This document shows, one piece after another, positions 8,237 to 54,797 of a DNA stretch of 64,000 nt. The DNA lies in the IMG/VR virus record IMGVR_UViG_3300021142_002226, positions 126,178 through 190,177 of that record; one strand, written 5' to 3'. The stretch is from a virus. Numbering within the stretch: position 1 is the stretch's first letter; every line of letters begins with the position of its first letter. The notes under the pieces were generated by a model that was not told where the DNA came from, did no database searches, and saw only the letters and a program-made list of their open reading frames with translations. Made by a program: the position numbers and the translations under genes.

Positions 8237-8674
8237 ATGTTTTGCAAATTCGGCAAAGAAAGAAAGTTATTTACTAACACAAATTTCAGAGTTAAATATG
8301 GGACTATAGATGCCCTTAAACTCAATTCAATATACATAGATATTGAATCCTGGGTTCAGCCAAAAGAACCCTTAAGCTACGAATCTTATATTCGTTTAAT
8401 GCGAAGACAAGTTATTCTTTCGCTCAATAATGAACTTGATTCAAATTTTTTCAATCAAAACTTTATTGTTGATCTTGATTTAAGAGCATCAGGAATGGAT
8501 CCAAAAAGGAAATCATTCATGTTGCTCGAAGTTACTTTATACCCCAAAATCAAACCTAAATTCACATCAAAAGAACTTAATCAAAAGGTTGAAGAAGTAA
8601 CAAATGTTATAATCAATACACTACAAAAAAATAAATTCAATTTTAACTCCAAAAAAAATGAACGTAATAAATAG
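8237..8674 (+). CDS. Hypothetical protein
   Basis: 145-aa ORF in head module. Confidence 0.6.
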   Translation: MFCKFGKERKLFTNTNFRVKYGTIDALKLNSIYIDIESWVQPKEPLSYESYIRLMRRQVILSLNNELDSNFFNQNFIVDLDLRASGMDPKRKSFMLLEVTLYPKIKPKFTSKELNQKVEEVTNVIINTLQKNKFNFNSKKNERNK

Positions 8675-9599
8675 CGATTATATGGACATTGATCTAAATG
8701 AAAATCTCATTAATGAAATCATAATTGAAAATCATTCAGATCTATCTAAGATTGGCGAAAACATGGAAACCTGGTTTTCTATTAATAATAAAGATTATTT
8801 CTTCAATTATAGAAGTATACCTAAATTACCATCTGGCCTATATTCTATCGTATTTACTGAAGCAAATGGTTTTGGATTATCTAAAATGGAATATAAATCT
8901 GAAGATTATTTTGTATTACCCTCGTTACCCCACGAAGAAATTATCTCAGATATCAAGAAATTTTGGGATAGTAAAAAGAACTATGAAAAATACAATCTTA
9001 CTACTAAGAGAGGAATAATTTTGCATGGTGATCCAGGTGGTGGTAAAACATCCCTGATTTATCTTTTGATTGAAGAAATGAAGAAATATGATGGTATTTC
9101 CATATATTTTGATTCACCAAAAACCTGGATTGAGATAGCTAAACTTATTCGTAAAATTGAACCAGACAGACCAATATTGTGCATTATTGAGGATATTGAC
9201 GGTGTAATTGAAAATAATGGTGAAGAAATATTTTTAAATTTCCTTGATGGTCTAAACTCCGTATCAAATATTGTTTATGTTGCAACAACCAATAATTTAA
9301 GGGAAATACCAGATAGGATAAAGAATAGACCATCACGTTTCGATAAAAAATATGAAGTAAAAAAACCAACAGATGAAGATAGGTTAATATATTTCACCAG
9401 AATGGTTTGTGAAGAAGATAAGGATATCTATGACCTTAAAAAACTTGCAAAGGACACGAAAGACTTGAGCATGGCTCATCTTAAAGAATTATTCATATCA
9501 TTATACATATTCAAGAATGATTATGCAAAGAGTCTACAAGATATAAAAAAGGGTAATATAATAGAAAAATCTATTGGGTTTGGCAGAAATGATGACTGA
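8658..9599 (+). CDS. AAA+ ATPase (single domain)
   Basis: GDPGGGKT, ILCIIEDID, ATTNN...RPSRFD (second region of homology). Confidence 0.88.
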   Translation: MNVINSDYMDIDLNENLINEIIIENHSDLSKIGENMETWFSINNKDYFFNYRSIPKLPSGLYSIVFTEANGFGLSKMEYKSEDYFVLPSLPHEEIISDIKKFWDSKKNYEKYNLTTKRGIILHGDPGGGKTSLIYLLIEEMKKYDGISIYFDSPKTWIEIAKLIRKIEPDRPILCIIEDIDGVIENNGEEIFLNFLDGLNSVSNIVYVATTNNLREIPDRIKNRPSRFDKKYEVKKPTDEDRLIYFTRMVCEEDKDIYDLKKLAKDTKDLSMAHLKELFISLYIFKNDYAKSLQDIKKGNIIEKSIGFGRNDD

Positions 9600-9652
9600 A
9601 ACCATCTTTTAATACAATCTTAAATATTTATAATTGAAATATTATATTTATT

Positions 9653-10354
9653 ATGGCTATAAAACTATTAAAAGAGGGTGAAGAAGGATTTATATATACA
9701 TTAACAGACCCAAATACCAACTTGGTTAGATATGTTGGTAAAGCCAAATCTATAGAGAACAGGTTCAAAGAACATATAAAAAAAGCAAAACTGGGAAAAA
9801 CACATAAAAATAATTGGATTAATTCACTTTTAAAAAATAACCAATTACCAATTATAGAAATAATTGATTCTGTAAGTACCGTTGATATTAATTTTTATGA
9901 AATATATTGGATTAATCAATTTAAATCATGGGGGTTCAATTTAACAAATGAAGCTAAAGGTGGTTCTGGTGGGAATTTGGGTGATATGGTTAATAAAAAA
10001 ATTTCAAATAAATTGAAAAATAGAACTTTTAGTCCTGAAACAATAGAAAAAATGAGGCTTGCACGAATAGGAAAAAAAGCATCAACTAAAACAAAAGAAT
10101 TGCTTTCTAAACAAAGATTGGGTAATAAAAATCCAATGTATGGAAAAAAAAGATGCATAATATCCAATTATAAAAAGATAATACAATTGGATATAAATAA
10201 TAAATTTATTAAAGAGTGGGCATCAATAAAAGATGCTTCAGAAAATTTAAAAATAAGTAGACAACTTATTGGCGATGTTCTTCATAATAGAAAATGGAAG
10301 AAAACTGCTGGTGGTTTCAAGTGGGCTTTTAAAAATATAAATAATGAAATATAG
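9653..10354 (+). CDS. GIY-YIG homing endonuclease with NUMOD3- and NUMOD1-like DNA-binding modules
   Basis: FIYTLTDP...RYVGKA...RFKEH, EIYWI...NL; FSPETIEKMR..., GNKNPMYGK; KKIIQLD...KEWASIKDA...TAGGFKW. Confidence 0.88.
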   Translation: MAIKLLKEGEEGFIYTLTDPNTNLVRYVGKAKSIENRFKEHIKKAKLGKTHKNNWINSLLKNNQLPIIEIIDSVSTVDINFYEIYWINQFKSWGFNLTNEAKGGSGGNLGDMVNKKISNKLKNRTFSPETIEKMRLARIGKKASTKTKELLSKQRLGNKNPMYGKKRCIISNYKKIIQLDINNKFIKEWASIKDASENLKISRQLIGDVLHNRKWKKTAGGFKWAFKNINNEI

Positions 10355-11066
10355 TGATATTGGAATTAATGAAAACAATGAATTAGGTGTTTTCAAACTA
10401 CTAATAGAACATGATGCTGGTTTCATTTCAAAAGAATTTACAAAAGGATTCTTAAAAGAGGGAACCATAAACGAAACTCTTGATTTAACTAAACCAATAT
10501 TCTATTATTCAACACTTCAGAAATATGGTGTTGAAAATAGAAATGGTAGAATCTACCCTGAAGACATACTCAAACGTCAAGTTGAGATATACAAAGATGT
10601 TATAAGAAAGAATGCGTCTTTTCATGAAATGGATCACCCAGATTCATCAACAATATCACTTAAAGGTGGTTCACCATACAGAATAGTTGATCTTTTTTGG
10701 AAAGGTAACGCTTTAATTGGTAAGCTTGAGGTACTTGTATCAGACGGTTATAGAAGAAGCGGTATTATATCATGTAATGGTGACCTTTTGGCTCATTATC
10801 TAAGCTATGGCATGACCGTTGGTATATCTTCAAGAGGTATAGGTACATTGAAGAAAGTTAACGGCAAAAACATGGTTCAAGATGATTTTGAACTTATATG
10901 TTGGGATGCTGTTTCAAGCCCATCAACACCTGGTTCCTATCTTTATCAAGATATAAATGATTTTGGTAAATATGATGAGGTTTTACCAGATAAAAAAGAT
11001 GAGATTGAAGAATCAAGCAACGGTAATGATTTTCTTAAGAACCTACAGAAATTTTTGAACAGATAA
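10344..11066 (+). CDS. Prohead protease (T4 gp21-like)
   Basis: ENRNGRIYP, HEMDHPD, GISSRGIGT, DFELICWDAVSSPSTPGSY. Confidence 0.92.
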   Translation: MKYSDIGINENNELGVFKLLIEHDAGFISKEFTKGFLKEGTINETLDLTKPIFYYSTLQKYGVENRNGRIYPEDILKRQVEIYKDVIRKNASFHEMDHPDSSTISLKGGSPYRIVDLFWKGNALIGKLEVLVSDGYRRSGIISCNGDLLAHYLSYGMTVGISSRGIGTLKKVNGKNMVQDDFELICWDAVSSPSTPGSYLYQDINDFGKYDEVLPDKKDEIEESSNGNDFLKNLQKFLNR

Positions 11067-11507: not shown

Positions 11508-12707
11508 ATGAGCAAAAGAAGTATATTAGCTGATACTCTAAATGAGGTTCAACAAATTAGAGAAGCTATAGAAAAAAATGCTAATCACGTATTGAAATCT
11601 ACCTTGAAAGAAGAATTGGAAGAAATTATTCACAAGGGTTTAGATGAAATGGGTGATGAGGAACAAGATGAAAACATCGAAGATATGAATCCAGACTCTA
11701 CAGATGGCATGGACTTAGATTCAGAAATGGGTTCTGACTCAGAAGAAATGACCGATAAACCAGACATTGAAGACACCCCAAGTGACGAAATACCTGGTGA
11801 CGAGGTAATTGATCTAACTGATAAATCAGACAAAGAAGTTCTAAAGAGATTTGAACTTATGGAACCTACAGACGAAATCGAAGTTATTCGCACAGGAGAC
11901 GGTATCGAAATTAAATTCCACCCAGAAGGATCTGAAGAAGAACCAGGTGAAATGAGCCCAGAAATGGATCATGAAGCTGGCGAAGAAGAAGATGAAGCTG
12001 GTGAAGAAGAAGACGAAATGGCACCAGCAATGGATGAAGCATCTGAAGAAGATGAGGGTGTTATGTACGAAATCGAAATCGCAGAAGGTGATGAAGAAGA
12101 AGATGAAGCTGTTAAAGAAGCTGAAGGTGAGGAAGAAGATGAAAGCACCATGGATGAAGTAAAGACTACAAGCAAAGTTAAGTTTTTAAAAACTCATACT
12201 GCTGCTCCAGCTGGTCAATCAGAAGGCTTACAAGAAAAACTTGTTAACACAAGAAAAAAATTACAAACTCTTGTTGCAGAAAACAAAAAAATCAAACAAG
12301 AATTAGATGCTTTCAAAACTCTTAAAGAATCATTTGTTTCAAATGAGAAAGAGTATAAGAATGCTATCAAAGTTCTTAAAACACAACTTCAAGAAGTTTC
12401 GTTATTCACTACCAATTTAACATATGCTGTTAAATTGATGACAGAGAACACTACAACTAAAGAAGAAAAATTCCAAATTTTATCGACTTTAGACAAAGCA
12501 AAAACTTTGAATGAATCTCAAAACATAGCAACTACGTTGGAAGAACAATTTAAATCAAAGAAATCAACATCTGCTGCTACAATTCTTGAAAATAAAGTTC
12601 TTGACAAACCTGCTTTCAGCAGCACTTCAGCTTCGATTAACGAATCTACAGTGTACAAGAATCCACAGGTTGAAAGAATGAAAGATTTAATAAATAAAAT
12701 ACAATAA
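11508..12707 (+). CDS. Prohead scaffolding/core protein (gp22-like)
   Basis: Very acidic middle region, C-terminal coiled coil, many (I/L)xE motifs, located between protease and capsid genes. Confidence 0.8.
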   Translation: MSKRSILADTLNEVQQIREAIEKNANHVLKSTLKEELEEIIHKGLDEMGDEEQDENIEDMNPDSTDGMDLDSEMGSDSEEMTDKPDIEDTPSDEIPGDEVIDLTDKSDKEVLKRFELMEPTDEIEVIRTGDGIEIKFHPEGSEEEPGEMSPEMDHEAGEEEDEAGEEEDEMAPAMDEASEEDEGVMYEIEIAEGDEEEDEAVKEAEGEEEDESTMDEVKTTSKVKFLKTHTAAPAGQSEGLQEKLVNTRKKLQTLVAENKKIKQELDAFKTLKESFVSNEKEYKNAIKVLKTQLQEVSLFTTNLTYAVKLMTENTTTKEEKFQILSTLDKAKTLNESQNIATTLEEQFKSKKSTSAATILENKVLDKPAFSSTSASINESTVYKNPQVERMKDLINKIQ

Positions 12708-12743: not shown

Positions 12744-14480
12744 ATGGGTGCATTATTAGAATCAGGTAGAGTTGGTAACGTGAGCGTTAACCACTTGAAA
12801 CTTGTAAGAGAAGATGTAATCAACAGATGGGATGACTTAGGTCTTTTAGAAGGTCTTAAAGGTCATGCTAAAGAAAACGTCGCTCAATTATTCGAGAACC
12901 AAGCTTCTTGGATGTTAAACGAATCAACTGCTTTAGGCGTTGAGGGTTCATTTGAAACCGTTGTGTTTCCAATCGTGAGAAGAGTATTCTCAAAATTATT
13001 AGCTAACGAAATCGTTTCGGTACAAGCGTTGAACTTACCTATCGGTAAATTGTTCTACTTCATACCTAAAATCGGTTCATCTGCGTTCAGTGCTACTGGT
13101 ACTAACCAAATGGCAATGGATAGTGGTAACGGTTTCAGCGATAACGTAAATCTTTACGATGCGTTCTATGGTGAAGATGGTATGTATGATAAATCTAAGG
13201 GTGCTGCTGTAGCTATCACTGGTAGCTTAGGTTCTTACTCTGGTGCTACTGCTCATACTTTCGCATACACAAGAACTCCATGGGGTCACTCTCAACCAAA
13301 CGATGGTTTTGCTCCAATAGCTCCATTCGTAGTTAATATTTCTGGTGGTACATCATCAGTTCCAGCAAGCGCTATTGTAAAAGTACAATTTGCACTTTCT
13401 ACAGTTAACCAAGTATTGACATCATTAGGTTTGTCTACTTCTACTTATCAAGGTGAAAATCCTGGTCAGTATTTGTTCGAAAACGCTGAAGAATTCTTGT
13501 CAACATTAAGTTTGACTGCTACTTCTGGTTACGGTGGTGTTGCAGCTGGTGCAGCTTTAGACTTTAATTTCGCTACTCAAAAGTACGGATTACAGTTAAT
13601 GACTGATAACGGTACAAACGCTTACACTTATGTACAGCTTTATAACTATGACACTACTAAATTAGCTCTTTCTAACGTTACTGTAGGTGCTAAAATCTAC
13701 AAATCATTGGAACTTGCTGATGATATGGGTGAAGTAAGCTTCGAGCTTAAATCAGTAACTGTATCTGTTATTGAAAGAAAATTAAGAGCACAATGGTCTC
13801 CAGAACTTGCTCAAGATGTTAGTGCATTCCACAACATTGACGCTGAAGCTGAATTGACAGCTTTATTGTCTGAACAAGTTGCTGCTGAAATCGACAGAGA
13901 AATCTTGCGTGACTTACGTAGAGGTGCTGCTTGGAGATTGGCATGGGATTATAAAGGTTCTACTGGTCGTGGTATCGATACATCAAACAGCGCTGCATTC
14001 TATACTCAAAAAGAATGGAACCAAACTTTGATGACTGCTATCAACCAAGTTTCTGCTCAAATCCATAAAGCAACTTTAAGAGGTGGTGCTAACTTCATCG
14101 TATGCTCTGCTGAAATTTCAGCTATCTTCGATGACTTGGAATATTTCCACGTATCTAACGCTGCTCCTGAGCAAGATAAATATAACATGGGTATCGAAAG
14201 AATCGGTGCTTTAGGTGGTCGCTACCAAGTTTATCGTGATCCTTACTTCCCAGCAGACACAATCCTTATGGGACACAAAGGTACATCATTGTTAGACACT
14301 GGTTATGTGTACGCTCCATACGTGCCAATGCAATTGACACCAACAATGTATAACCCATTCACTTTCGCTCCTGTGAAAGGTTTGATGACAAGGTACGCTA
14401 AGAAAATGGTTAACAACCGTTACTATGGTGTGATCAAAGTTAGAAATGTGGTATCATTTGGTATCGATAGCTTTAGATAA
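12744..14480 (+). CDS. Major capsid protein (T4 gp23-like)
   Basis: FPIVRRVF, VQALNLPIGKLFY, RKLRAQWSPELAQD, EIDREIL, GYVYAPYVP, GLMTRYA. Confidence 0.96.
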   Translation: MGALLESGRVGNVSVNHLKLVREDVINRWDDLGLLEGLKGHAKENVAQLFENQASWMLNESTALGVEGSFETVVFPIVRRVFSKLLANEIVSVQALNLPIGKLFYFIPKIGSSAFSATGTNQMAMDSGNGFSDNVNLYDAFYGEDGMYDKSKGAAVAITGSLGSYSGATAHTFAYTRTPWGHSQPNDGFAPIAPFVVNISGGTSSVPASAIVKVQFALSTVNQVLTSLGLSTSTYQGENPGQYLFENAEEFLSTLSLTATSGYGGVAAGAALDFNFATQKYGLQLMTDNGTNAYTYVQLYNYDTTKLALSNVTVGAKIYKSLELADDMGEVSFELKSVTVSVIERKLRAQWSPELAQDVSAFHNIDAEAELTALLSEQVAAEIDREILRDLRRGAAWRLAWDYKGSTGRGIDTSNSAAFYTQKEWNQTLMTAINQVSAQIHKATLRGGANFIVCSAEISAIFDDLEYFHVSNAAPEQDKYNMGIERIGALGGRYQVYRDPYFPADTILMGHKGTSLLDTGYVYAPYVPMQLTPTMYNPFTFAPVKGLMTRYAKKMVNNRYYGVIKVRNVVSFGIDSFR

Positions 14481-14504
14481 TCGAATTATCTATACACTAT
14501 ACAG

Positions 14505-14532
14505 AAATGGCTGGAAAAAATTCCAGCCATTT
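14505..14532. terminator. Bidirectional intrinsic terminator
   Basis: aaatggctggaa-aaaa-ttccagccattt perfect inverted repeat between convergent genes. Confidence 0.85.
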
Positions 14533-15105
14533 TTATTTTGATACAATATCATTTATAAAAATATTATCAACCTTAAAATATAAATCATCTAATGTACCAT
14601 CATTAATTATTAAATGATTATATTTTATATCAAACATTTCTTTTTCTGATGCGTGGAAATCACCAACGTTCATTCCTGGTCTATCAACTCTCCATATTTC
14701 CCCACCCATTTTTACAATGGAATCAGCTTCATGCATAAATCTAACATCAGATATTACAACACTATTATCTGTATTTGATTTATACCATTGCTCAAATCTT
14801 TTAACCCAAATCAATCTACCTATTTCTTTAAAAGCTGGTATATGATTCTGTAAATCATATTGAGAAACTTCAGTTCCCATAACCTTTAATATATCTCTTG
14901 GAGTACAACCCCATACAGGATCGATAGTATCCTTTGCATCACCAAAGACTTGTTCTTCGGTGAATCCAAACATGGCCATACAACCACGTTTTAGTGGGTC
15001 AGCAAAACTATATTTATTGTATTTGTGATATTTGCAAAGAAAATCAGATATTGTGTCTTTGCCAGAACGAGCTAATCCTATACAACCTATTAATTTTTTT
15101 TTCAT
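14533..15105 (-). CDS. Deoxynucleoside monophosphate kinase (T4 gp1-like)
   Basis: GLARSGKDT, FADPLK, TPRDIL...GTE, VISDVRF..E, HASE. Confidence 0.9.
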   Translation of the reverse strand: MKKKLIGCIGLARSGKDTISDFLCKYHKYNKYSFADPLKRGCMAMFGFTEEQVFGDAKDTIDPVWGCTPRDILKVMGTEVSQYDLQNHIPAFKEIGRLIWVKRFEQWYKSNTDNSVVISDVRFMHEADSIVKMGGEIWRVDRPGMNVGDFHASEKEMFDIKYNHLIINDGTLDDLYFKVDNIFINDIVSK

Positions 15106-15144
15106 ATAATCTATATTTTTTAGTTATTACAATAATAACTAAAA

Positions 15145-15378
15145 TTATTTGAATTTCCAAATATACCCATAAGCTGTTACCACTTCCACACCCATTAACA
15201 AATTTCATAGCATCCTCAATTGATCTGTGTTCTTTAATTAAAGAACCAGTTTTAGTAAATTGTAAAACTGGTTTACAAAACCTTGTTTTTCAATTTTTTC
15301 TTTTGTTAATTCTGATAATTTCTTATCTTTATTTAAAGATGTTGAGCCTTTTTTAAAACAACCAGAGTTAGCTTTAAA
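15145..15378 (-). pseudogene. Decayed homing endonuclease remnant (NUMOD3/NUMOD1 modules)
   Basis: Frame-broken segments NSGCFKKG...KKLSELTKEKI / KPVLQFTKTGSLIKEHRSIEDA / TAYGYIWKFK*; no start codon or nuclease domain. Confidence 0.7.
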
Positions 15379-15392
15379 AAACCAAATAAAAA

Positions 15393-15412
15393 AACCCACA
15401 TTTCTGTGGGTT
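15393..15412 (-). terminator. Intrinsic terminator
   Basis: aacccaca-tttc-tgtgggtt with an A-tract on its left (U-tract on the minus strand), just after the stop of 15417..16658. Confidence 0.7.
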
Positions 15413-15416
15413 AATT

Positions 15417-16658
15417 TTAAGTATTTGTATTATCGTCAGTAGTTGTGGAAGTATTAAATTTTGGTACACCAGTATTGGTTTGATTAGATGGGGCTTTTGA
15501 ATCAGGTTTTTTTTGTTTAGTCGGAGTTTTTTTAGCTACTTTTTTTGGAGCCGCTTTTGCTGGTACAACTTTTTTATTTTGATCAGCATTTTGACTTAAA
15601 ATATTTGTGTTATCTGTACCATTAGCATTAACGTTTGTAATATTATAACCTATATTCAAAGATTTTAATATATCTGTAAGGGCTTTAACACTTATTGTAT
15701 CTCCTTCTTGATTAGCCTTTTGTAACTCCTTCTGTGTTTGTTTCGCAACATCATTTTTTTGATTCGGATCGTTAGACTTTATAGCTTGATTAGCTTTATT
15801 AGCCAAAGATTGAACCTCTGGTTCTTGAGCAGATGGATTGTCAACCCCTTTTTCATCTGATGAAAGTGTTGCTTGAGCCCTTTTTATGATATTGAAAAAA
15901 TTATTTATATCATTCTGTAGTTTTTCTATCTGTTTAAATTCTTCGAACTCAGCACCATTTTTTTGAACATCAACATATAATTTGTTTAACTCAGAAACAA
16001 GCGGTATTAATTTATTCAACGTTGGCATAACCTTATTATTCAAATCTTTAGTAATTCTTTTGGCTATAGAACTCCATCTTTTACCATAAAAATTAAATGT
16101 ATAAGCATTTACACCAGTTTTGAAACCAGTTTTTAAACCCCAATCAGGTGTTCCAATATTTTGTAAAGGTTTTTGTCCTTTTGGTAACCAATATGTTGCA
16201 AGACCTTCATTGATATTGTTTAATCTGTTGATTAAATTTTCAGTTATATTGCTATAATCCTCATCTCCCTTATAATAATCTTCATTCATCCCCCAATCAG
16301 GACTATATCTATTGTACATCCATTCTCTTTCATTTGGATCTGGATAATCTCTTTCGAACCTATCCGCAAAATCATCATTGGATTTTATTCTATAGAAATC
16401 ACGTTCATCATCGCTACGATAATCTTCAGGGTCATCATCGTGATAATCCATATCATCATCGTGATAATCCATGTCATCGTGTTGTTCCTCTGGTTCTGGA
16501 TCTTCCTCCTCAAATTCCTCTAAAGGAATAATACCAAGATCAAGTTTATTACCAGAAAGAGCACCCTTAGCGTCAATATTAACTGATGGATCTAAAAATT
16601 CATTTAAACCCATTAGTTTTCTTTGCTTATTAAGTGATTCTAATAGTTCTTTTTTCAT
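15417..16658 (-). CDS. Leader-tagged hypothetical protein, probable internal head protein
   Basis: N-terminus MKKELLESLNKQRKLMGLNE; acidic DDMDYH repeats; Lys/Pro/Ala-rich tail. Confidence 0.65.
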   Translation of the reverse strand: MKKELLESLNKQRKLMGLNEFLDPSVNIDAKGALSGNKLDLGIIPLEEFEEEDPEPEEQHDDMDYHDDDMDYHDDDPEDYRSDDERDFYRIKSNDDFADRFERDYPDPNEREWMYNRYSPDWGMNEDYYKGDEDYSNITENLINRLNNINEGLATYWLPKGQKPLQNIGTPDWGLKTGFKTGVNAYTFNFYGKRWSSIAKRITKDLNNKVMPTLNKLIPLVSELNKLYVDVQKNGAEFEEFKQIEKLQNDINNFFNIIKRAQATLSSDEKGVDNPSAQEPEVQSLANKANQAIKSNDPNQKNDVAKQTQKELQKANQEGDTISVKALTDILKSLNIGYNITNVNANGTDNTNILSQNADQNKKVVPAKAAPKKVAKKTPTKQKKPDSKAPSNQTNTGVPKFNTSTTTDDNTNT

Positions 16659-16661
16659 ATA

Positions 16662-17405
16662 TTATACTGTTGTTGTTGCAGCTTTATTATTTTTTGCAGC
16701 ATTTCTTGCATTTAATTGACTTTGATTCAACGGTCTACCATTTTTATCAACTTCTGGAGCTGCTTGTGTTTCTGGAGCCTGTGTTGTTGATGCTTGAGTT
16801 TCTGGAGCTTGTGTTGTTGTAGACGTTCCAGTTTGGGTAGTTTGTCCGCTTTGAGCAGTCGCACCCTGAGCGTTAGATTGCGTTGCCGCTTCTTTATCAG
16901 CTTGTGCTGCTCCAGTTGCAGATGCTTGGCTCAATGATGTTACAAATTGTGACATTTGAGCTAAAGAATCTTTTTGAGCTTTCCATGTAGTACCCATGTT
17001 ACCAAATACTGTTGTCATTTGTTTAACGATTGGATCATTAGCACCTAATTGAGCTACTTGCTGTTGCATCGATTTAAGTTGATTAAATTGACCATCACTT
17101 TTGTTCACAAATTGAGTCATTTGTTGAATGGTTTTTTGCAATACTTTAATTTGGTTGTTAATCTTTCTCAATATTATGGCCTTTTTAGCACCTTGCATTG
17201 CACCACCAATAGCACCTTTAATAGCGGTATTTATACCAAAAATTTCATCCAACTCACCCTCTTCTTCGTCATGTTCACTTTCTTCCATTGGTTTAGAATA
17301 TTCAGCGTAGCCACCTTCCTTAAATTCGTAGCTCATTGTTTCGTTCAATCCCATTAGTTTTCTTTGTCTATCAAGGGATTCGTTTAATGATAATTTCTTT
17401 TCCAT
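16662..17405 (-). CDS. Leader-tagged hypothetical protein
   Basis: N-terminus MEKKLSLNESLDRQRKLMGLNE; Gln/Thr/Ala-rich with TQAPE repeats. Confidence 0.65.
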   Translation of the reverse strand: MEKKLSLNESLDRQRKLMGLNETMSYEFKEGGYAEYSKPMEESEHDEEEGELDEIFGINTAIKGAIGGAMQGAKKAIILRKINNQIKVLQKTIQQMTQFVNKSDGQFNQLKSMQQQVAQLGANDPIVKQMTTVFGNMGTTWKAQKDSLAQMSQFVTSLSQASATGAAQADKEAATQSNAQGATAQSGQTTQTGTSTTTQAPETQASTTQAPETQAAPEVDKNGRPLNQSQLNARNAAKNNKAATTTV

Positions 17406-32169: not shown

Positions 32170-32913
32170 TTATTTCTTGTCCATTTTAGCGTTCATAGCT
32201 TCCATAGCCTCTTTTTTCTTGTCTTTCATTTGCTTTGGTGTTAAAGACTCTTTTTTCTCTTCATTAACTGTACCAGTTTTTGCATTTTCCCAAGTACCAG
32301 TTTTAGCTTTTGCGGATTCGATATCTTTCATACCACCTGCACTTTTCAACGATTTTTCAACGTGCTTAGTAGCTTCTTTAGCAACACCTGATGTTGCTTT
32401 TGCTGTATCTTTAGTTGCACTCTTTGGAGCACCCATAGAATTTTTAACCTCACCAGCTTTCATTCCTTTAACCATGTGAGCTGTAGCATCTGCTGATTTT
32501 TTGCTCACACCATCCCATACACCAGTAGCTGCTTTTGCCTTCTCAATATCTGTAGATTTACCACCAGATTTGATACCATCCTTAGGTGTTTTACCACTCT
32601 TCACATTTTTATCCCAAGTACCTTCACCTTTAGTTCCAGCTACCTTTGTACCAGTAAATTTTTCTTTACCAACTTCTTCATGCATAGAACCTTTAGCCAT
32701 GTGCTTTGGATTGTGAGCTTCTGGAGCATAAGGTTTCTTAGGTAAAGCAGTTGCTTCAGCTTCCTTAACTGTTTCATCTTCCTCTTCTTCAGTTTCCATC
32801 ATAGCTTCATCTTCCATAGGAGTTTCCATCATGGATTCGTCTTCAACAGATTCGTTTAAGTGTTTATGAATGCTCATCAATTGAGCTTCTGTAATTCTAT
32901 ATTTTACTGCCAT
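32170..32913 (-). CDS. Lys/Ala-rich low-complexity protein, possible internal head protein (start revised to MAVKYRITEAQL)
   Basis: ITE/LNE/VNE motifs; repeated KAKTG(T/V)W-like units; TATTTAT upstream. Confidence 0.6.
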   Translation of the reverse strand: MAVKYRITEAQLMSIHKHLNESVEDESMMETPMEDEAMMETEEEEDETVKEAEATALPKKPYAPEAHNPKHMAKGSMHEEVGKEKFTGTKVAGTKGEGTWDKNVKSGKTPKDGIKSGGKSTDIEKAKAATGVWDGVSKKSADATAHMVKGMKAGEVKNSMGAPKSATKDTAKATSGVAKEATKHVEKSLKSAGGMKDIESAKAKTGTWENAKTGTVNEEKKESLTPKQMKDKKKEAMEAMNAKMDKK

Positions 32914-36601: not shown

Positions 36602-37042
36602 TTAGAATAGTTTTTTAATCTTATTTATTTCCTCATTTAAACTGCCTTCAGTAGGCATTTCCTTACATTTCTTTCCGCAATGGGAACAATATTCATTATT
36701 TACAATTTCTTGTTGGCAACATTGTGATAATCTTGGAGCTTCGCCAAATACCTCACCTAAAGCTCCAGCTCTCGTACTCATCCATGATGATTCGCTTATA
36801 TCTCCTTGAAAATCATAGTTTTTAGTATATTTTCCAGATTCTTCAGCATCATGCTTGTTAATCATAGTATCTTCAAAACCCTTATCTATATTTTTATAAA
36901 CTTTATTGATATCCTCGACACACATTTCTTGAAAACGTTGAGCTGACACAATATTAATTGTGAATTTTTCACCGTTTTTTGCTTTTTCCATGGCCTGATT
37001 CAGATTCCAGCCTATATTCCTGATTAATTCTTCAAAATTCAT
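36602..37042 (-). CDS. Hypothetical protein with Cys cluster and a C-terminal copy of the leader motif
   Basis: CCQ...YCSHCGKKC; ends SLNEEINKIKKLF. Confidence 0.6.
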   Translation of the reverse strand: MNFEELIRNIGWNLNQAMEKAKNGEKFTINIVSAQRFQEMCVEDINKVYKNIDKGFEDTMINKHDAEESGKYTKNYDFQGDISESSWMSTRAGALGEVFGEAPRLSQCCQQEIVNNEYCSHCGKKCKEMPTEGSLNEEINKIKKLF

Positions 37043-38613: not shown

Positions 38614-39912
38614 ATGGCTAATAAAAAGGGACTCAATGAAGAGTTATTAAAAATAAAAAAATATATGCGTCTTCTTGAGAACTATGAAATTCCAGGTGAA
38701 GATGATACCAACGAATTTACTGGTGCTGTACAATACCCTGTATATGAAGAAGAAGATGAAAATGAGGAAGTAATCCCATCAGCATATGATGAAAACAAAG
38801 TTTCAGAATATTTTGATGAAACTGGTGCAAGCACACCATATGGTGAAGACACTGGAGTTATAACACCAGAATTTGTTGAAGAAGCGCCAAGAAGTAAATC
38901 GTTTACTAAAGACATATATCATAAAACTTTAAGGGCAGCTCTTGAAAAAGCTGAGGAATACGCTGCTAAAAAGGGTTACACGATTGATCCTGAAGAAATG
39001 TTTAGACTTTTCGGAACTGGTGGAGTTTCATACGAAACAACTAAAAAAGGAAGTTTGACTTTATATAAAGACGGTGTACCTCAAAAAAAGATGCTACATA
39101 TTCAAATATATAGAATGCCTTCTGGTAATTATGAATTAAATGATTATATCAATGAAAAACATTTATCAACACCAGAAGAACATGATGAATATGAAGAGCA
39201 ACTCGGTTTCCAAAAATTAATCAACCTTATAAATTCTGAGAATCCAGAATTGGATTTGATTAAAAAAACATTGTATAGTAATGGACTATATATGAAACTT
39301 TTAAAACTTAAGTCTGGAAAAAAACTTGACGATAAAAATGAAGTTTTAAAAGGTCTTGAAAATATCGTACTTAAAATGGAAAATCCTGAGTATGAACATA
39401 TTAAGGATGAAATATTACATTTGGTTGATGAATTAATGGATCCTCAATTGGCTGAAACATCATGCGGTTGTGATGAAATGTATGAATCAATCAAAACAAT
39501 TTCCAAAGCAAGTCTTATAACTGAAGCTATTGTAGAATCAGAAAAATTACCAACATTTGATAAATTAATCTCAATACTATTACATTCAGATCCACAAGTT
39601 CAAATATTCCACAGACAAACAAAATCATACTCAGAACATAAAGCTTTGAATGAATATTATGATGAAATAGTTGATCTTATAGATGGATTAATAGAATCTT
39701 GGCAAGGAACCCATGGATTGATCAAAAAATATAAAAATTTTGAATATATGGAATATGTGGATAATAAAGCCACAATAGCTTATTTCACAGAACTATATGA
39801 CATTATCCAAAAATTGAGACAAGATATTGAAGAGTCCTGGATCCAAAATCAAATTGATAACGTTTGCGAACTTATCTCAACAACAATATATAAATTAACA
39901 TATCTTAAATAA
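38614..39912 (+). CDS. Leader-tagged multidomain protein with a C-terminal ferritin/Dps-like helical domain
   Basis: MANKKGLNEELLKIKKYMRLLE; C-terminal FHRQTKSYSEHKALNEYYDEIVDLIDGLIE..QG. Confidence 0.6.
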   Translation: MANKKGLNEELLKIKKYMRLLENYEIPGEDDTNEFTGAVQYPVYEEEDENEEVIPSAYDENKVSEYFDETGASTPYGEDTGVITPEFVEEAPRSKSFTKDIYHKTLRAALEKAEEYAAKKGYTIDPEEMFRLFGTGGVSYETTKKGSLTLYKDGVPQKKMLHIQIYRMPSGNYELNDYINEKHLSTPEEHDEYEEQLGFQKLINLINSENPELDLIKKTLYSNGLYMKLLKLKSGKKLDDKNEVLKGLENIVLKMENPEYEHIKDEILHLVDELMDPQLAETSCGCDEMYESIKTISKASLITEAIVESEKLPTFDKLISILLHSDPQVQIFHRQTKSYSEHKALNEYYDEIVDLIDGLIESWQGTHGLIKKYKNFEYMEYVDNKATIAYFTELYDIIQKLRQDIEESWIQNQIDNVCELISTTIYKLTYLK

Positions 39913-39917: not shown

Positions 39918-41393
39918 ATGAAAAAAAATATATTAAATGAACAAGTCTCAAGAATGAGAGCAATGATGGGACTTAACGAATTTTTCTCAATGCCAACTGG
40001 TGAATCAGCTGAGTCTGGTGCAATCCAAGAAGATGAAAAAGCAAAATATGCTAAAACAATTGCTATGATTGATAAAATTGGTTCAAGACCTGTTGCCATG
40101 AAAATGGTTGATGGTTATTTGTCAAAAATGATTGGATTAACAGCTTCTGATTTAGCAGATACTGCAACTTATGCTAATGGTTTGGATTCAATCGAAGAAC
40201 TTTTAGATGATGAAAAATATTCACAAGCTTATGCTGAAGCAAAGGAAACTGCAAAAGCTATGATAGAAGATGAAGGTTTTGGTGGTATGTTTGACGAAGA
40301 ACTAAAAGGTAAACAACATAAAATTGACGCTAACCACAATGGTAAGATAGACGCTGACGACTTTAAATTATTACGCAAAGACGAAGCTCTTCATGGTGAT
40401 CAAGATAAAATCGATGCTAACCATAACGGTAAAATAGATGCTGACGATTTCAAAATGCTACGTAAGCAAAAATGCAATGAATGCGGTGTTGGTTACATGG
40501 AAGAAGGTAAATGTGATGAATGTGGTTATATGGAAGAAGGTTTTAATATAGCTGATTTATTAGCAGGGGACGGACCTAAATATGACAATAGTGGTGGTGG
40601 ATTACCAGATGTTAATCATGAAGTAATCAAAAATATTATAAATGTTATTGAAAAAAGACATAGAATGGGTAAAGGTGGGGTAACACCAGCCGATGTTTAC
40701 GAAATGTTAAATAATGATGAAGAATTACCAAATAACACAACAATAGAACTTTTATTGAAAAAATTGGCTGAAAAAGGATTATTGTTTTATGGCCAGAATA
40801 ACAAAAATAAAATTGATCCAAAAGATGCCTCAAAATATGTTAATACTGACCTTTCAGGTAAATCATCTTTCCACAATGTTGCAACTGATAAAAGAATACC
40901 AGAACCTAATATGAACGAATCATATATAATGGAAAAGAAAGATATCATCAAGAAATTCCAACAACAATATGGTAAAAAGAAAGGTGAAAAAATTTATTAC
41001 GCAACAGCAAATAAACAAGATAGAAACCCAGAAACATTCAAACAAAAAGATGAAGAAAGTGTTAATGAGCTTTTAGACTTTAGTTGGGACAATGTAACGA
41101 CTAATAGCAATAATTCAGATAGCTTCAACAACAAAGATCGTTTTAACACTACAACATATAATCAAAAAGATGATGATAGCGAAGATGATGATAGCGAAAA
41201 TGTGAACGAAAAAAAATGGATAAAAACTGATTCAAACAAAAAAGGTATGTTCAAAGGTAGAAGTTTAGATTCATTGAAAGCTGAATTAGAAAAACTAAAG
41301 AAAACTACTAATAAGACAGAAGCTCTTAAGAAAAAAGAACACGAATTAATGTTCGCAATTAGAGCAAAAAAAGGACACGGTTTTGAAAACTAA
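39918..41393 (+). CDS. Leader-tagged mosaic protein with two EF-hand-like repeats
   Basis: MKKNILNEQVSRMRAMMGLNE; KIDANHNGKIDADDFK twice; CxxC pairs. Confidence 0.65.
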   Translation: MKKNILNEQVSRMRAMMGLNEFFSMPTGESAESGAIQEDEKAKYAKTIAMIDKIGSRPVAMKMVDGYLSKMIGLTASDLADTATYANGLDSIEELLDDEKYSQAYAEAKETAKAMIEDEGFGGMFDEELKGKQHKIDANHNGKIDADDFKLLRKDEALHGDQDKIDANHNGKIDADDFKMLRKQKCNECGVGYMEEGKCDECGYMEEGFNIADLLAGDGPKYDNSGGGLPDVNHEVIKNIINVIEKRHRMGKGGVTPADVYEMLNNDEELPNNTTIELLLKKLAEKGLLFYGQNNKNKIDPKDASKYVNTDLSGKSSFHNVATDKRIPEPNMNESYIMEKKDIIKKFQQQYGKKKGEKIYYATANKQDRNPETFKQKDEESVNELLDFSWDNVTTNSNNSDSFNNKDRFNTTTYNQKDDDSEDDDSENVNEKKWIKTDSNKKGMFKGRSLDSLKAELEKLKKTTNKTEALKKKEHELMFAIRAKKGHGFEN

Positions 41394-46622: not shown

Positions 46623-47207
46623 TTATTTCTTATCATTTATCTTCTCTGAAGTATATTTAATACCCATTATTGTACCAATAATACTAAATGAGTTAGTTAA
46701 CAATATACCAAACATATTACTCCAAGACGACTCCAATATTTTTGTATCATAATGATTAACCATAGCAAATAAATATAGACCAGTCGTAATCAAACCAACA
46801 CCTATTATTACCATCAAAGCGCTTTTAACAATCTTACCAATTAATTCAAACTGAGTTCTTTTCTGCAAACTATCTAAATCCTCAACAGCAACATCCCTCA
46901 ATTTCTCAGCCTCAAGCCTTGCTTTCTTAGATTCCTCAAGAGCATCTTGCAACTCATCCATTAATTTATTATTCTCATTCTGAGCCCTCGTTAATTCATT
47001 GTTACGTTGCTGAATTTGCTTAGTTATATCCAAACGCTTTTTTCTGGTTTCTTTATCAAGCTTATTAGCCGTTTCTAAATATTCAGTAAACTCTTTATCC
47101 TCTGGATCCTCTTCAACAACCTTCAATAAATTACCCTCCAAATATAATCTTTTGGTTTCTGCTAATTCAATCAGTTGGTCTTTAATTTCTTTGCAAAATT
47201 TAATCAT
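46623..47207 (-). CDS. Coiled-coil membrane protein, last gene of the signalling operon
   Basis: Long coiled coil plus two C-terminal hydrophobic helices; start overlaps the response regulator stop. Confidence 0.65.
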   Translation of the reverse strand: MIKFCKEIKDQLIELAETKRLYLEGNLLKVVEEDPEDKEFTEYLETANKLDKETRKKRLDITKQIQQRNNELTRAQNENNKLMDELQDALEESKKARLEAEKLRDVAVEDLDSLQKRTQFELIGKIVKSALMVIIGVGLITTGLYLFAMVNHYDTKILESSWSNMFGILLTNSFSIIGTIMGIKYTSEKINDKK

Positions 47208-47650
47208 TATTTATATATCTTGAATGGTGCCGTTCTATTTTTATATTTTGGAAAATCCTTTTTAAATTCTTCCAATCTTGGCTCAATCTCATCAGATTTG
47301 ATAATCCAAAATTGAGCACCAGCTTTAACGGCTTTAGTTTGTTCATCAGTTTCGTTGCTTGATGATATAATACCAATAACAACATTATTTCCATGTTCAA
47401 AATTAATTCTTCTGATTAATTCAATACCATCGAATGATGAACCAATTATATTTAAATCAACAAAAACACACTCAGGTCTTTCATGTAGATTTTTATATTT
47501 TGTTTTAAACAATTTTTCAGCATCATCAGCGCTATTAATTGTTTCTAACGTAAGTGTTATATCAAGAAGACTACAAGCGTCCTCAAACACAAGATGAAAT
47601 AAATCTTCATCATCAACGAGTAAAATAGAATCTATAAACTTTTTTTCCAT
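47207..47650 (-). CDS. Single-domain response regulator (CheY-like receiver)
   Basis: ILLVDDE, VFVDLN (phosphoacceptor Asp), DGIELI, IISSS, GA..WIIK. Confidence 0.9.
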   Translation of the reverse strand: MEKKFIDSILLVDDEDLFHLVFEDACSLLDITLTLETINSADDAEKLFKTKYKNLHERPECVFVDLNIIGSSFDGIELIRRINFEHGNNVVIGIISSSNETDEQTKAVKAGAQFWIIKSDEIEPRLEEFKKDFPKYKNRTAPFKIYK

Positions 47651-47653
47651 AAA

Positions 47654-48178: not shown

Positions 48179-48185
48179 ATAATTT

Positions 48186-49949: not shown

Positions 49950-50044
49950 AATTATATTTGTTTTATATCGAACTTTAGTTAAGTTACCTATAAATACTTT
50001 AAAATATACCATTAAATTAAACTATTTATAAAAAATACATTTCC

Positions 50045-50518
50045 GTGCATTTAAACGAACAATTAAATAAAATTAAGTCAATGATGGGCATAAAACCATT
50101 AAATGAATACATTGACCCAAAAACGGTGCTTAACGACCAAAATTCCTTAGAATCAATATATTCTGGAAAAAGAAATGTTGGAACCATAGTTAAACATGGT
50201 GGTGTTAGAAATAAAAGCTGGGAAGAAACACTTAAAGATATCGAAAAACATGGCCTTAATTTGATGAAAGTTGAATCAAACCCATATGACCTTTATATTG
50301 TATATAAAAAATATGCGCATTTCCAAGCAAAAGAATTGCATGATATAGCTGAAAAAAATGAGGGCTACCTATCAGTAAACGCATCAATAGAAGATTCAGT
50401 CAGAATCGGTGAGTTGTTGGAATATAACCCAGAATCAATAAAACAATATATAATTAAGAACTACCCAGCAGAAGAAGTTCGAAAATATTATACAAATAAA
50501 AACAATTTTGATATATAA
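50045..50518 (+). CDS. Leader-tagged hypothetical protein
   Basis: MHLNEQLNKIKSMMGIKPLNE. Confidence 0.65.
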   Translation: MHLNEQLNKIKSMMGIKPLNEYIDPKTVLNDQNSLESIYSGKRNVGTIVKHGGVRNKSWEETLKDIEKHGLNLMKVESNPYDLYIVYKKYAHFQAKELHDIAEKNEGYLSVNASIEDSVRIGELLEYNPESIKQYIIKNYPAEEVRKYYTNKNNFDI

Positions 50519-51067
50519 TGAAATTGAACGAACAAATACATAGAATGAAATCAATGATGGGGTTAAATGAAGGTTTGGGTGGAGAATCATTCGAACAATA
50601 TTTTAAAAGGAGAATCCCTTTTTTGAAAGAATTTGTTGACCTATCAACAGATGACGAACATTTGAATTTTCAAAATACAACTGAAAATCAAAACGTTAAA
50701 ATCTATATACCGTCATCCGAACTAATTTATACACTACCACAATTTGATATTATAACACAATTCAAATTTAACAAAATGGGTGATAAATATGAATTAGCAT
50801 TTTATTTCAATTTTGATATAGAATACCCAAAAGATATGGATGAGCAATTCAAAAGAACCTTTGATGAACAAGCCAGTACTTTGGCTCAAATGAACTCTAT
50901 GGAATTTGATGATGCTCAAATCAGTCCAGAATTTATTAATTTTGTGATCAGGAAAATCAACGAAAACATTTTCAAAATGCCTGAATTGATTAATAAGTAT
51001 TTGATGATACCAGATATAAACACCCAACTTGATATATAATGAAATTGAACGAACAAATACATAGAAT
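50508..51067 (+). repeat. Identical 39-nt direct repeat (50508-50546 and 51029-51067) spanning stop/start junctions
   Basis: ttgatatataatgaaattgaacgaacaaatacatagaat. Confidence 0.95.
50518..51039 (+). CDS. Leader-tagged hypothetical protein
   Basis: MKLNEQIHRMKSMMGLNE. Confidence 0.65.
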   Translation: MKLNEQIHRMKSMMGLNEGLGGESFEQYFKRRIPFLKEFVDLSTDDEHLNFQNTTENQNVKIYIPSSELIYTLPQFDIITQFKFNKMGDKYELAFYFNFDIEYPKDMDEQFKRTFDEQASTLAQMNSMEFDDAQISPEFINFVIRKINENIFKMPELINKYLMIPDINTQLDI

Positions 51068-51893
51068 TAAAGAAATGATGGGCTTACAACCCATTAATGA
51101 ATACGTCACACAAAATGATGTTTATCTCCGTGATTATTTTAATATGTCAGACGAACAAAAAAAATCTGGTCTCCCTTATGAATACTCATTTCTATTTGAT
51201 GATTTCCTTGTGGAAAACGATATAGTGTTTGAAAAACCAACGCATTCATTCATCAGTACTGACGGTGAAGAACCTGGAGACACATACGAAGATTACGAAA
51301 TAGTTGAATGGCTAAACCAACATAAAAAACCATTATTTGATCAATTTGCTACTTATCTATACAATAGAGTCAATGATCACACCCTACCAGTATCTGATGC
51401 CGAATACCCAGCCTGGTCATTCTTTAGCTCCGCAACATTAATCAAAAACCAATGGCTCATCCATTTTACCAATGATCCATGGGGCATCGCAAAGAACGGT
51501 TTCACCAAAGGCGTTTCAGAAATTGAAAAACTCGGACTCACAACATATCTTGGAGAATTCGAGAAAAAATACGGAGGTTACAATTTTGCATTTAGAGCGA
51601 ATATATATAACAGATACGCAAAAGGTAGCCACGGATACAAATACGGTGAAGAAGCCGTGATGTTCATTGGTTCAGGCATGGAAATGCACCACTATGGTGA
51701 CGAAGAACCACAAGTCATCTTCTGGGGCAAAAAAGCTAAAAACATAGTGCCGATAACAAAAGAATACGGTGACGATTATGCTGTACATAACCTAAAGAAG
51801 GGTGGTATAGTTTATAAAAGCCAAGATCTCGATGACGTGGTTTCTTGGGTTATGAGAAATTACCAACAATACCAAAATAGATTACATTATTAA
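51039..51893 (+). CDS. Leader-tagged protein, possible ADP-ribosyltransferase-like fold
   Basis: MKLNEQIHRIKEMMGLQPINE; LIHFT...IAKNGF...YNFAF...GDEEPQVIF. Confidence 0.5.
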   Translation: MKLNEQIHRIKEMMGLQPINEYVTQNDVYLRDYFNMSDEQKKSGLPYEYSFLFDDFLVENDIVFEKPTHSFISTDGEEPGDTYEDYEIVEWLNQHKKPLFDQFATYLYNRVNDHTLPVSDAEYPAWSFFSSATLIKNQWLIHFTNDPWGIAKNGFTKGVSEIEKLGLTTYLGEFEKKYGGYNFAFRANIYNRYAKGSHGYKYGEEAVMFIGSGMEMHHYGDEEPQVIFWGKKAKNIVPITKEYGDDYAVHNLKKGGIVYKSQDLDDVVSWVMRNYQQYQNRLHY

Positions 51894-51908: not shown

Positions 51909-53093
51909 ATGAACTTACACGAACAAATACATAGGATTAAAGAAATGATGGGTTTGAAAGAATCCAATTATGATGGCAAAACCTTGATTAATGTCGATAT
52001 TCAACCAGAATATAAAAACTATCTTTCATTCGACCCAAATGATTGGGTTGAAATGTTAAATAATCATAGAGGTAAAATTGTATTCCTATATAATGGAGAA
52101 GACACACTTGGAATGATCAATTTACACGATTACCAATATTGGTTATTAGATCATGGTGTTGATGAACATGTGATAGAAAACGCAACCTTCTATGATAAAG
52201 GTTACGCTTTCTTTAGATATTGTATAGACGAAAAAATTGAAGAAAAACAAATTATAGATCTAATAAAATTCATGATCGAAAAAGATGTGAACGATTCACG
52301 TGATTTGAATGAAGAATTTTGGGACGAATTCATATCAAATTATTCACATGACGATATCAGAAAACTTCTCGAAATGAGCGATGATTGTATCAATATACCA
52401 GATCTTATGGATTTCCTAAAAAATTATAACAATATTGTTATTTGCGGCGGAGGTGCAAACGAATGCCTGAAAGAAGTTGAAATAGCACTACACGCACTCG
52501 GAAAATCATTTGACACATATCATGATTTTGTATATGAAAAAAACTATATAAACGAAGAAGAAATTCAAATAGAAAAAGACTCTAACCTAAATACAGTAAA
52601 CGAAAACGTATCACAAATCACATCAGGCGAAGCGGTATGGAACCATATCGTATCAATCACACCAGATGAAGAAGATATACCATGGGGTTTCGAAAAAATC
52701 ATCAAACAAAACTCATTCATCCCAATAGATGACTTTGACCTAAGATCACTGCTTACAACAGACCCAGATTTCAAACAATTCTATGAACATAACAAAGATA
52801 ATGAATATTTTAGATACGACCCATCAGAAGTTAATAGCAATGAATTAGACCAAGAAATTGTTGTCGTAAACGGAGAACTACTTGACGGTTACTCAAGAGC
52901 AGCAACAAAACTTGCAAACGGTGAAACAAAAACAAACGCATTCGTTGCATCAAAAGGAACCATCAAAATAGATGAAAAAGTAACAAAAAATGAAATCATC
53001 TGCGATAAATGTGGATGGAAATGGAAAAAGGAAGACGGAGGAAAAGATCTATATATCTGCCACAAATGTAACCACAACAACAAACCTAAGTAA
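51909..53093 (+). CDS. Leader-tagged mosaic protein: cysteine-hydrolase (isochorismatase/nicotinamidase-like) domain, ParB-like segment, zinc ribbon
   Basis: LINVDIQP...IVICGGGANECL; LLDGYSR; CDKC...CHKC. Confidence 0.55.
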   Translation: MNLHEQIHRIKEMMGLKESNYDGKTLINVDIQPEYKNYLSFDPNDWVEMLNNHRGKIVFLYNGEDTLGMINLHDYQYWLLDHGVDEHVIENATFYDKGYAFFRYCIDEKIEEKQIIDLIKFMIEKDVNDSRDLNEEFWDEFISNYSHDDIRKLLEMSDDCINIPDLMDFLKNYNNIVICGGGANECLKEVEIALHALGKSFDTYHDFVYEKNYINEEEIQIEKDSNLNTVNENVSQITSGEAVWNHIVSITPDEEDIPWGFEKIIKQNSFIPIDDFDLRSLLTTDPDFKQFYEHNKDNEYFRYDPSEVNSNELDQEIVVVNGELLDGYSRAATKLANGETKTNAFVASKGTIKIDEKVTKNEIICDKCGWKWKKEDGGKDLYICHKCNHNNKPK

Positions 53094-53483: not shown

Positions 53484-54061
53484 ATGTTATTTGACTTTAT
53501 ATTAATTAATGTCTTCTTTCTTTTTGGATCCTCATTATATCCGTCAATTAACTCCTCAGCAATATTCCATAACTTATACCAAACCTGAGCAGCATCATAC
53601 ATATCTGAAGATAAATAATATAAACTATTTCTATATTTTGAAATTTCATCAATCACCTTATTATCATAACCATACTTCTCATGAAAAGTATCAATCTTAT
53701 CTTGATAATATTCCTCTCGTGCATTATAATAATCATTCGCCTTCTCAAGCTCCCTTTCCTTCTGCTTTGCCATATCAATATTTTTAACAATATCATCTAA
53801 CACAGCACCAGCCATCAATTTAGTTGCCTCAATGTCAATATACTTCTTGGCCTTGGCATAATCATCCATGACCTCACTCAAAACCTTACCAATCTCATCA
53901 TTAACACTTGGAACCTGGTCATCAGGAACTTCCTCAGCATATGGAATATCCTCATCCGTCTCAGCAACCATTGGAACATCTGGCTCCAAATCACTGTACC
54001 CAGATTCACCTAAACCCATCATCGATTTCATCTTTGAAATCTGTTCATTAAGATTTTTCAT
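53480..54061 (-). CDS. Leader-tagged hypothetical helical protein (start revised)
   Basis: MKNLNEQISKMKSMMGLGE. Confidence 0.65.
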   Translation of the reverse strand: MKNLNEQISKMKSMMGLGESGYSDLEPDVPMVAETDEDIPYAEEVPDDQVPSVNDEIGKVLSEVMDDYAKAKKYIDIEATKLMAGAVLDDIVKNIDMAKQKERELEKANDYYNAREEYYQDKIDTFHEKYGYDNKVIDEISKYRNSLYYLSSDMYDAAQVWYKLWNIAEELIDGYNEDPKRKKTLINIKSNNI

Positions 54062-54275: not shown

Positions 54276-54797
54276 ATGGCACTCAACGAACAAATAAATA
54301 GAATCAAAGAAATGATGGGCTTGAATAATCGATATGAATACAAAATAGTATCCTATGAAGAATTTGAAGACAAATTATTAGATATCACAACACTAAATTT
54401 GGAAGATGATCAAGTAAGAATACCACAATTTGATCAAAATAAAGATTATCACCTACTCAATATAAATGATGTTGACCTATATATCAGAAATAGAAAACAA
54501 CTCCCAGAAAGCGGTTCCTACGAATTATTTATCTCTAATATCGATGGCGATGATATAGGGTTTATCCGTGGTACAAAATTAAACAACATACTTTCATTTA
54601 ATCTCATTTATATCACCCCAGAACACAGAGGCGAAGGTATAGGAACTGAAATATATGAATATTTCCTAAATCATGGATATATAATCAAATCTGACTCAGA
54701 AATCACTGATAGTACATATAGCATCTACACAAAACTCGCAAAGTCAATTTATAAACCAATTATATTTAATGACGGTAGAGTAGGATTAACCAAATAA
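54276..54797 (+). CDS. Leader-tagged GNAT acetyltransferase (start revised)
   Basis: MALNEQINRIKEMMGL; IYITPEHRGEGIGTEIY (GNAT motif A). Confidence 0.7.
   Translation: MALNEQINRIKEMMGLNNRYEYKIVSYEEFEDKLLDITTLNLEDDQVRIPQFDQNKDYHLLNINDVDLYIRNRKQLPESGSYELFISNIDGDDIGFIRGTKLNNILSFNLIYITPEHRGEGIGTEIYEYFLNHGYIIKSDSEITDSTYSIYTKLAKSIYKPIIFNDGRVGLTK

Follow-up and report, generated by a model that had tools for sequence, protein, structure and literature searches.

Copies of one helical motif at the scaffold C-terminus and on N-terminal cargo leaders of T4-like phages: a probable prohead address

The C-terminal tail of the scaffolding protein of a T4-like phage and the N-terminal leaders of a set of unrelated proteins encoded in the same genome are probably copies of one portable, detachable helix, also carried by the prohead protease, that would address proteins to the prohead. 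Hundreds of uncultured relatives share this scaffold tail. The identity of the motif, its terminal position, its conservation and the cleavage motifs flanking it were observed directly, and its helicity was predicted. The stretch of DNA analyzed (hereafter the window) comprises the final 64 kb of a phage genome of 190,177 bp with a G+C content of 31%.

The genome codes for a gp21-family S77 protease, a T4-type portal and a major capsid protein (PF03420, PF07230, PF07068). The portal gene of the head module contains an intein (PF07230), and the portal region is separated from the protease gene by genes for an AAA ATPase and a GIY-YIG/NUMOD homing endonuclease (8658-10354, +). The T4 gp21-like prohead core serine protease of the Peptidase_S77 family (10344..11066, +; PF03420, E 1.9e-18) is followed by an ORF of 399 aa (11508..12707, +) and by the gene of the major capsid protein (MCP) of the gp23 family (12744..14480, +; PF07068, E 1.8e-72). 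No Pfam or PHROG family matched the 399-aa ORF. Judged from its position, which is that of T4 gene 22 in a protease-scaffold-MCP gene order, and from the acidic, helical composition of its product, this ORF encodes the head scaffolding protein, i.e., the equivalent of T4 gene 22.

The scaffold gene ends as quoted in the initial annotation, with positions 12636-12707 comprising 23 codons and the stop codon. This end contains I-N-E (12636..12644, +), a candidate cleavage site for the prohead protease (L/I-x-E), and the tail helix K-N-P-Q-V-E-R-M-K-D-L-I-N-K-I-Q (12657..12704, +), a look-alike of the leaders that was recognized by conservation, profile match and predicted helicity. AF2 modeling of the C-terminal 175 residues of the scaffold gave long helices (mean pLDDT of 80.5), with a disordered linker at residues 142-161 of the fragment, which includes the I-N-E motif, and a terminal helix at residues 162-174 (pLDDT of about 83). 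Thus, the tail is predicted to be a short helix on a flexible tether, set apart from the body of the protein. When a profile of the same 175 residues was compared with PDB sequences, only coiled-coil noise was obtained (E ≥0.28), and the scaffold C-terminus had no sequence homology to any solved scaffold in this search.

Conservation of the tail was analyzed in 80 loci obtained by a capsid-protein search of IMG/VR (52-70% identity; clade A). The tail was almost invariant and was present in 78 of these 80 loci, in the ORF that precedes the capsid gene, with the consensus [LI]-x-E-[ST]-K-x-Y-E-N-P-Q-F-x-R-M-K-D-L-M-x-K-I-K followed by the stop codon. The I-x-E motif described in the initial annotation as preceding the helix is likewise conserved: [LI]-x-E was found within the preceding 8 residues in 69 of 69 tails of relatives. 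In alignments of the relatives, the extreme C-terminus was conserved more strongly than the remaining protein; the scaffold also possesses a strongly conserved helical segment (invariant columns in alignment A5). One clade-A scaffold ends with R-I-K-E-M-M, which is exactly the leader core. All leader-bearing relatives with a readable head module possessed such a scaffold tail, including a complete phage of 321 kb that carries at least 15 leaders.

At least 10 ORFs of the window open with a leader of the consensus L-N-E-Q-I-x-R-I-K-x-M-M-G-L-N-E, and weaker copies occur elsewhere in the genome, outside this main set. Leaders are present at the N-termini of an EF-hand-containing protein of 491 aa (39918..39980, +; ending with G-L-N-E), a protein of roughly 157 aa with a GTG start (50045..50104, +), proteins of 173 aa (50518..50571, +; G-L-N-E), 284 aa (51039..51101, +; I-N-E), 394 aa (51909..51962, +; L-K-E) and 193 aa (54005..54061, -; L-G-E), and a GNAT-like protein of 173 aa (54276..54326, +). 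Diverged leaders belong to a DUF5856 protein of 432 aa (38614..38682, +), to a protein of 413 aa encoded just downstream of the MCP gene (16599..16658, -; …K-Q-R-K-L-M-G-L-N-E) and to a protein of 247 aa, where the leader is again N-terminal (17340..17405, -; …D-R-Q-R-K-L-M-G-L-N-E). The cores N-E-Q-V-S-R-M-R-A-M (39918) and N-E-Q-I-S-K-M-K-S-M (54061, -) were read exactly as first reported. For the leader at 50518, AF2 placed an 11-residue helix at residues 3-13 and predicted the adjoining stretch with G-L-N-E to be non-helical. A phage-encoded two-component pair (47207-50012, -), which Pfam identified as a histidine kinase of 608 aa with GAF and PAS domains and a 147-aa protein with a receiver domain, is located immediately ahead of the leader-gene array.

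In the relatives, 33 distinct leaders were found, and nearly all copies of the motif were located at ORF starts. The bodies of the leader-bearing proteins are unrelated (EF-hand, DUF5856, GNAT, or without any family). L/I-x-E follows the helix in 28 of the 33 leaders, as compared to 9.7% of random 11-residue windows. Among 212 pairs of identical leader residues, 78 used different codons. Since the residues are kept in spite of differing codons, selection acts on the peptide, and a cause of leader conservation at the DNA level was rejected.

The motif is not restricted to N-termini. The top non-leader match both of the leader HMM and of the leader PSSM was L-N-E-E-I-N-K-I-K-K-L-F (36605..36640, -) at the C-terminal end of a protein of 146 aa, and the other top non-leader matches of the PSSM were likewise located at extreme protein C-termini. 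Several otherwise unrelated proteins carry such a C-terminal motif (L-N-E-x-I-x-K-I-K-K-hydrophobic), namely those encoded at 36602-37042 (-) in the window, at 104551-105066 (+) and 14112-15818 (-) in genome G000, and in loci L084 and L017. As the motif is also found at C-termini of unrelated proteins, the helix seems to be functional at either end of the chain.

The N-terminal leaders and the last 16 residues of the scaffold can be aligned in the register given in the initial annotation. For the window genome taken alone, this match was not significant and is only suggestive: the leader HMM did not reach the scaffold tail in the phage's own genome, BLASTP-short with the tail against this genome returned leader 39918 at E 13, and the leader PSSM (10-12 residues) ranked the tail 12th to 17th among about 65,600 windows. 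Addition of the relatives raised the resemblance above chance, as judged by profile scores, by a second clade and by a BLASTP-short match in phage immuto (see below). An HMM built only from tails of relatives and applied to all six frames of the window genome ranked the scaffold at the top, followed by three leaders, which were aligned in the register of the initial annotation. The comparison of scaffold C-termini with leaders across relatives, which the initial annotation had proposed as a check, yielded 15.2 bits for the clade-A tail and clade-A leader profiles, while the maximum of the null, i.e., 5,712 diagonals through 18 conserved protein families of the same loci, was 10.7 bits. The extrapolated p value was about 2.5e-4 for this pair, corresponding to an E value of 0.08-0.2 if treated as a search. 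Shuffling of columns with composition kept attained the score in 1 of 5,000 cases, and the reversed profile scored 7.9 bits.

Independent and stronger evidence for the match between tail and leaders than that from clade A is supplied by clade B, i.e., Flavobacterium phage vB_FspM_immuto_3-5A and its relatives. The capsid protein of immuto is about 40% identical to that of the window. Its scaffold ends with …I-S-E followed by V-S-E-Q-V-S-R-W-Q-K-L-A-G-I-I-K, and two of its proteins, immuto35A_42 and immuto35A_187, begin with M-K-K-Q-I-L-S-E-Q-F-[KR]-R-M-Q-x-L-A-G-I-I-T-E. Tail and N-termini share S-E-Q-x-x-R-x-Q-K-L-A-G-I-I, with 11 of 16 residues being identical, and BLASTP-short with the immuto scaffold tail found an N-terminal leader at E 0.002. 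A loose regular expression for the core matched at only three places in the 160-kb immuto genome, namely the tail and these two N-termini. A search of the immuto genome with the leader alignment gave no match; the immuto leaders were found by scanning the record directly. The immuto scaffold gene (MW353176.1 125582-126823) carries the annotation "DNA polymerase phi-like protein"; position, composition and conserved tail identify its product as the scaffold.

In 80 immuto-like contigs, the scaffold ends with …R-M-Q-K-L-A-G-I-I-K. The regular expression for the motif, applied to these contigs (606 kb) in six frames, gave 76 matches, comprising 74 scaffold C-termini and 2 N-termini, and no internal copy. 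The clade-B tails were picked without reference to the leaders of the window. The clade-B tail profile matched the clade-A leader profile with 16.1 bits (null maximum of about 10.6), the clade-A tail matched the clade-B leaders with 12.4 bits, and the two tail profiles matched each other with 13.0 bits. Thus, the two tail and two leader profiles all scored above the null pairwise, the pair of clade-B tail and clade-B leader being circular; the 22 bits of this pair were discarded, since one regular expression had chosen both sets. Strict co-variation clade by clade is not claimed, because, in the match to the clade-A leaders, the tail of clade A has no advantage over that of clade B (15.2 vs. 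16.1 bits). One immuto-like contig (L179 1263-1847) carries a leader-bearing gene directly upstream of the scaffold gene, and its leader and the scaffold tail of the same contig have the rarer variant R-W-Q in common. In the 484-kb phage LR756508, an exact DNA pattern for R-M-Q-K-L-A found the scaffold tail only, while a looser pattern gave two weak N-terminal look-alikes (…R-F-Q-E-L-A-G-V and …R-L-Q-E-L-A-G-I), which are leads only.

The protease is a further carrier of the motif. In most relatives, its tail reads D-R-M-K-K-L-M-G-x-L or K-S-V-D-L-M-K-K-L, and the profiles of scaffold tail and protease tail matched with 17.3 bits (E 0.014 as a search). The protease tail of the window phage itself (11025-11063, +) has lost the R-M-K core and represents a diverged form of such a helix. 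The protease ORF comprises 600 aa in the 321-kb relative and 574 aa in LR756508, and thus contains large insertions or extensions in these phages.

These findings suggest the following mechanism, in which packaging, cleavage and receptor are inferred from sequence. A portable amphipathic helix at one end of the chain would address proteins to the interior of the assembling prohead; its users would be the scaffold, at least a dozen unrelated cargo proteins and, in most relatives, the protease. A short "hook" of G and hydrophobic residues follows the helix in some lineages. According to the models, a non-helical stretch follows the helix in the leader and precedes it in the scaffold tail. L/I-x-E, the cleavage rule of T4 gp21 (PMC9026906), bounds the helix, and a T4-type S77 protease could clip the helix off here, thereby freeing the protein or letting the scaffold leave.

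The arrangement resembles the capsid targeting sequence (CTS) of T4, which is found on IPI-III and Alt and is processed by gp21, in that a short N-terminal leader ending with L/I-x-E heads unrelated proteins, the head genes belong to the gp20, gp21 and gp23 families, and the leader is presumably clipped after loading. It differs in size, with 10 residues in T4 as compared to a helix of 13-18 residues with an R-[IM]-K-x-M-M-G core, in the much larger number of cargo genes (no fewer than 10-15 in each genome), and in the look-alike at the scaffold C-terminus and the copies at C-termini of other proteins. The leaders of T4 IPII and IPIII (NC_000866) had nothing in common with those of the window beyond the terminal x-E. 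By this comparison, the window leaders are an analogue of the T4 CTS and not a sequence relative. The N-terminus of T4 gp22 (…E-Q-L-I-A-E followed by A) resembles the CTS of the internal proteins (…Q-E-F-I-A-E followed by A); this short, weak match may be a weak hint at the same principle. T4 gp21 ends with amphipathic …A-M-K-K-A-L, a weak likeness.

In P22 and herpesviruses, the C-terminal helix of the scaffold binds the coat protein. In herpesviruses (UL26/UL26.5) and lambda (C/Nu3), a C-terminal capsid-binding tail is common to protease and scaffold; it derives from nested in-frame genes and is cut at maturation. Similarly, in most of the relatives the protease has a tail like that of the scaffold, with a protease site just upstream, but the two genes are separate here and the motif has also spread to the N-termini of cargo proteins. 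In phage 80alpha, the last 16 scaffold residues form an 11-residue helix and an R-I-I-K hook that bind to the N-arm of the capsid protein as well as to the A/P cleft; this scaffold element is copied by CpmB of SaPI1, which makes the same contacts (PMC5644958). As in 80alpha and CpmB, the last approximately 16 residues of the scaffolds studied here would be an amphipathic helix with a hook (G-I-I-K or G-K-I-K), a disordered stretch serves as its tether, and unrelated proteins possess a copy of the terminal motif. However, no sequence homology to the 80alpha scaffold was detectable. In contrast to CpmB, where the copy is at the C-terminus of a rival scaffold and redirects capsid size, most copies are at cargo N-termini, and their presumed purpose is loading. 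The analogy to P22, herpesviruses and 80alpha provides a reasonable prior for the function of the scaffold tail.

By analogy to the helix-and-hook of 80alpha, we tentatively place the receptor of the helix on the inner face of the MCP, in its N-arm or propeptide region; this assignment has somewhat less than an even chance of being right. Cargo would then take up scaffold sites on the coat. This reading is based on the tether-plus-helix build and the clade-B ending G-I-I-K, which fit the picture known from 80alpha, and on the first 60 residues of the MCP (12744-12923), which were almost invariant among 69 sequences (alignment A2). These 60 residues are likely the propeptide and a candidate docking surface. 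They end with L-N-E followed by S-T, similar to I-N-E followed by S-T in the scaffold. Complex prediction for the MCP (alignment A2) and the leader (residues 1-32 of alignment A4) gave a score of 0.00, with the fold of the partner being uncertain, and was counted neither for nor against binding. Of the proposal in the initial annotation that the leaders copy the coat-binding helix of the scaffold, the part stating that leaders and tail belong to one motif family stood, as supported by the profiles, the near-identity in immuto, the terminal positions and L/I-x-E, while coat binding is retained only as the tentative reading described here.

A coat receptor is only slightly preferred to the scaffolding core, which might be the receptor with a chance of about one in three. 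The same module would then bind the conserved helical patch of the scaffold or form a homotypic helix bundle, and cargo and protease would co-polymerize with the scaffold before or during shell formation, with the coat not being the partner. Binding of like to like would directly account for the resemblance of leader and tail, the conserved helical segment of the scaffold (invariant columns in A5) could serve as the receptor, and the protease, a resident of the core, possesses the same tail in relatives. Stoichiometry also supports the core. The T4 head contains about 930 gp23 and 55 gp24 subunits. With about 1,090 internal proteins and about 580 copies of gp22 (PMC9958956), internal proteins and gp22 outnumber the coat sites of T4, so that abundant cargo could not all occupy them. 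Moreover, according to reviews of T4, the leaders of its internal proteins show affinity for the scaffolding core, these proteins are purified together with gp22, and the proteins of the core are recruited ahead of the shell (PMC9026906). On the other hand, the flexible linker of 20 residues before the helix has the look of a tether reaching the shell. To our knowledge, every structurally resolved scaffold terminus binds coat (80alpha, and P22 and herpesviruses from established knowledge), which argues for the MCP rather than the core.

It is improbable that the helix instead serves the S77 prohead protease as a docking element (exosite), marking the adjacent L/I-x-E rather than providing a packaging address. 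L/I-x-E always adjoins the helix, and in T4 the scaffold and the propeptide-bearing proteins are protease substrates (PMC9026906). However, the protease itself bears the motif in relatives, which suits co-localization better than substrate recognition, the MCP propeptide is also a substrate but lacks the helix motif, and the targeting and processing residues of the T4 leader are separable (PMC9026906). A lack of any common function, with short R/K/M/L-rich amphipathic helices being alike through composition, periodicity or convergence for different partners, would agree with the non-significant match within the window genome and with a motif of merely 10-13 residues against null noise of about 10 bits, but has little probability and is already disfavored by the composition-keeping shuffles and the reversed profile, by the agreement of two independent clades, by the near-identity in immuto (E 0.002) and by the restriction of the motif to termini (76 of 76 in the clade-B loci).

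Encapsulins also use a short terminal peptide to send unrelated cargo into a shell of the HK97 fold, but they lack scaffold, protease and DNA, and their cargo-loading peptides have another consensus. Engineered P22 virus-like particles, in which cargo is fused to the coat-binding domain of the scaffold, are a synthetic system that achieves by design what seems to occur in nature in this phage group. The new element presented here is the link between CTS-like cargo leaders and the scaffold terminus; a literature search found no report of cargo leaders copying a scaffold terminus, and a recent review terms core localization "mysterious". If the link holds true, cargo loading would be scaffold mimicry, the first concrete mechanism for capsid targeting of the T4 type would be at hand, and nanoreactors engineered by scaffold fusion would have a counterpart in nature. 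In its widest form, which we regard as possible and hold with less than even confidence, one universal "prohead address" helix would operate in a large group of uncultured T4-like phages with Bacteroidota-type hosts, and scaffold, protease and dozens of swappable cargo enzymes would be competitors for a single receptor site within the shell.

If the leaders copy the scaffold helix, the question becomes accessible to peptides, truncations and cryo-EM of protease-deficient proheads, and a culturable member is available with Flavobacterium phage immuto on Flavobacterium sp. LMO8. The motif provides a sequence rule for listing proteins that are probably carried in the heads of these abundant environmental phages and injected, and it suggests a minimal tag of natural origin with which proteins could be loaded into large capsids.

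In the relatives, many small genes start with N-terminal leaders of a second family (M-K-I-I-I-T-E-S-Q-L-K-x-x-I and similar sequences). These genes are often arrayed beside the head module, as in L081-L083 and at 152.4-156.4 kb of LR756508. In the window, one candidate of this second family, M-A-V-K-Y-R-I-T-E-A-Q-L…, was found at the start of 32170-32913 (-).
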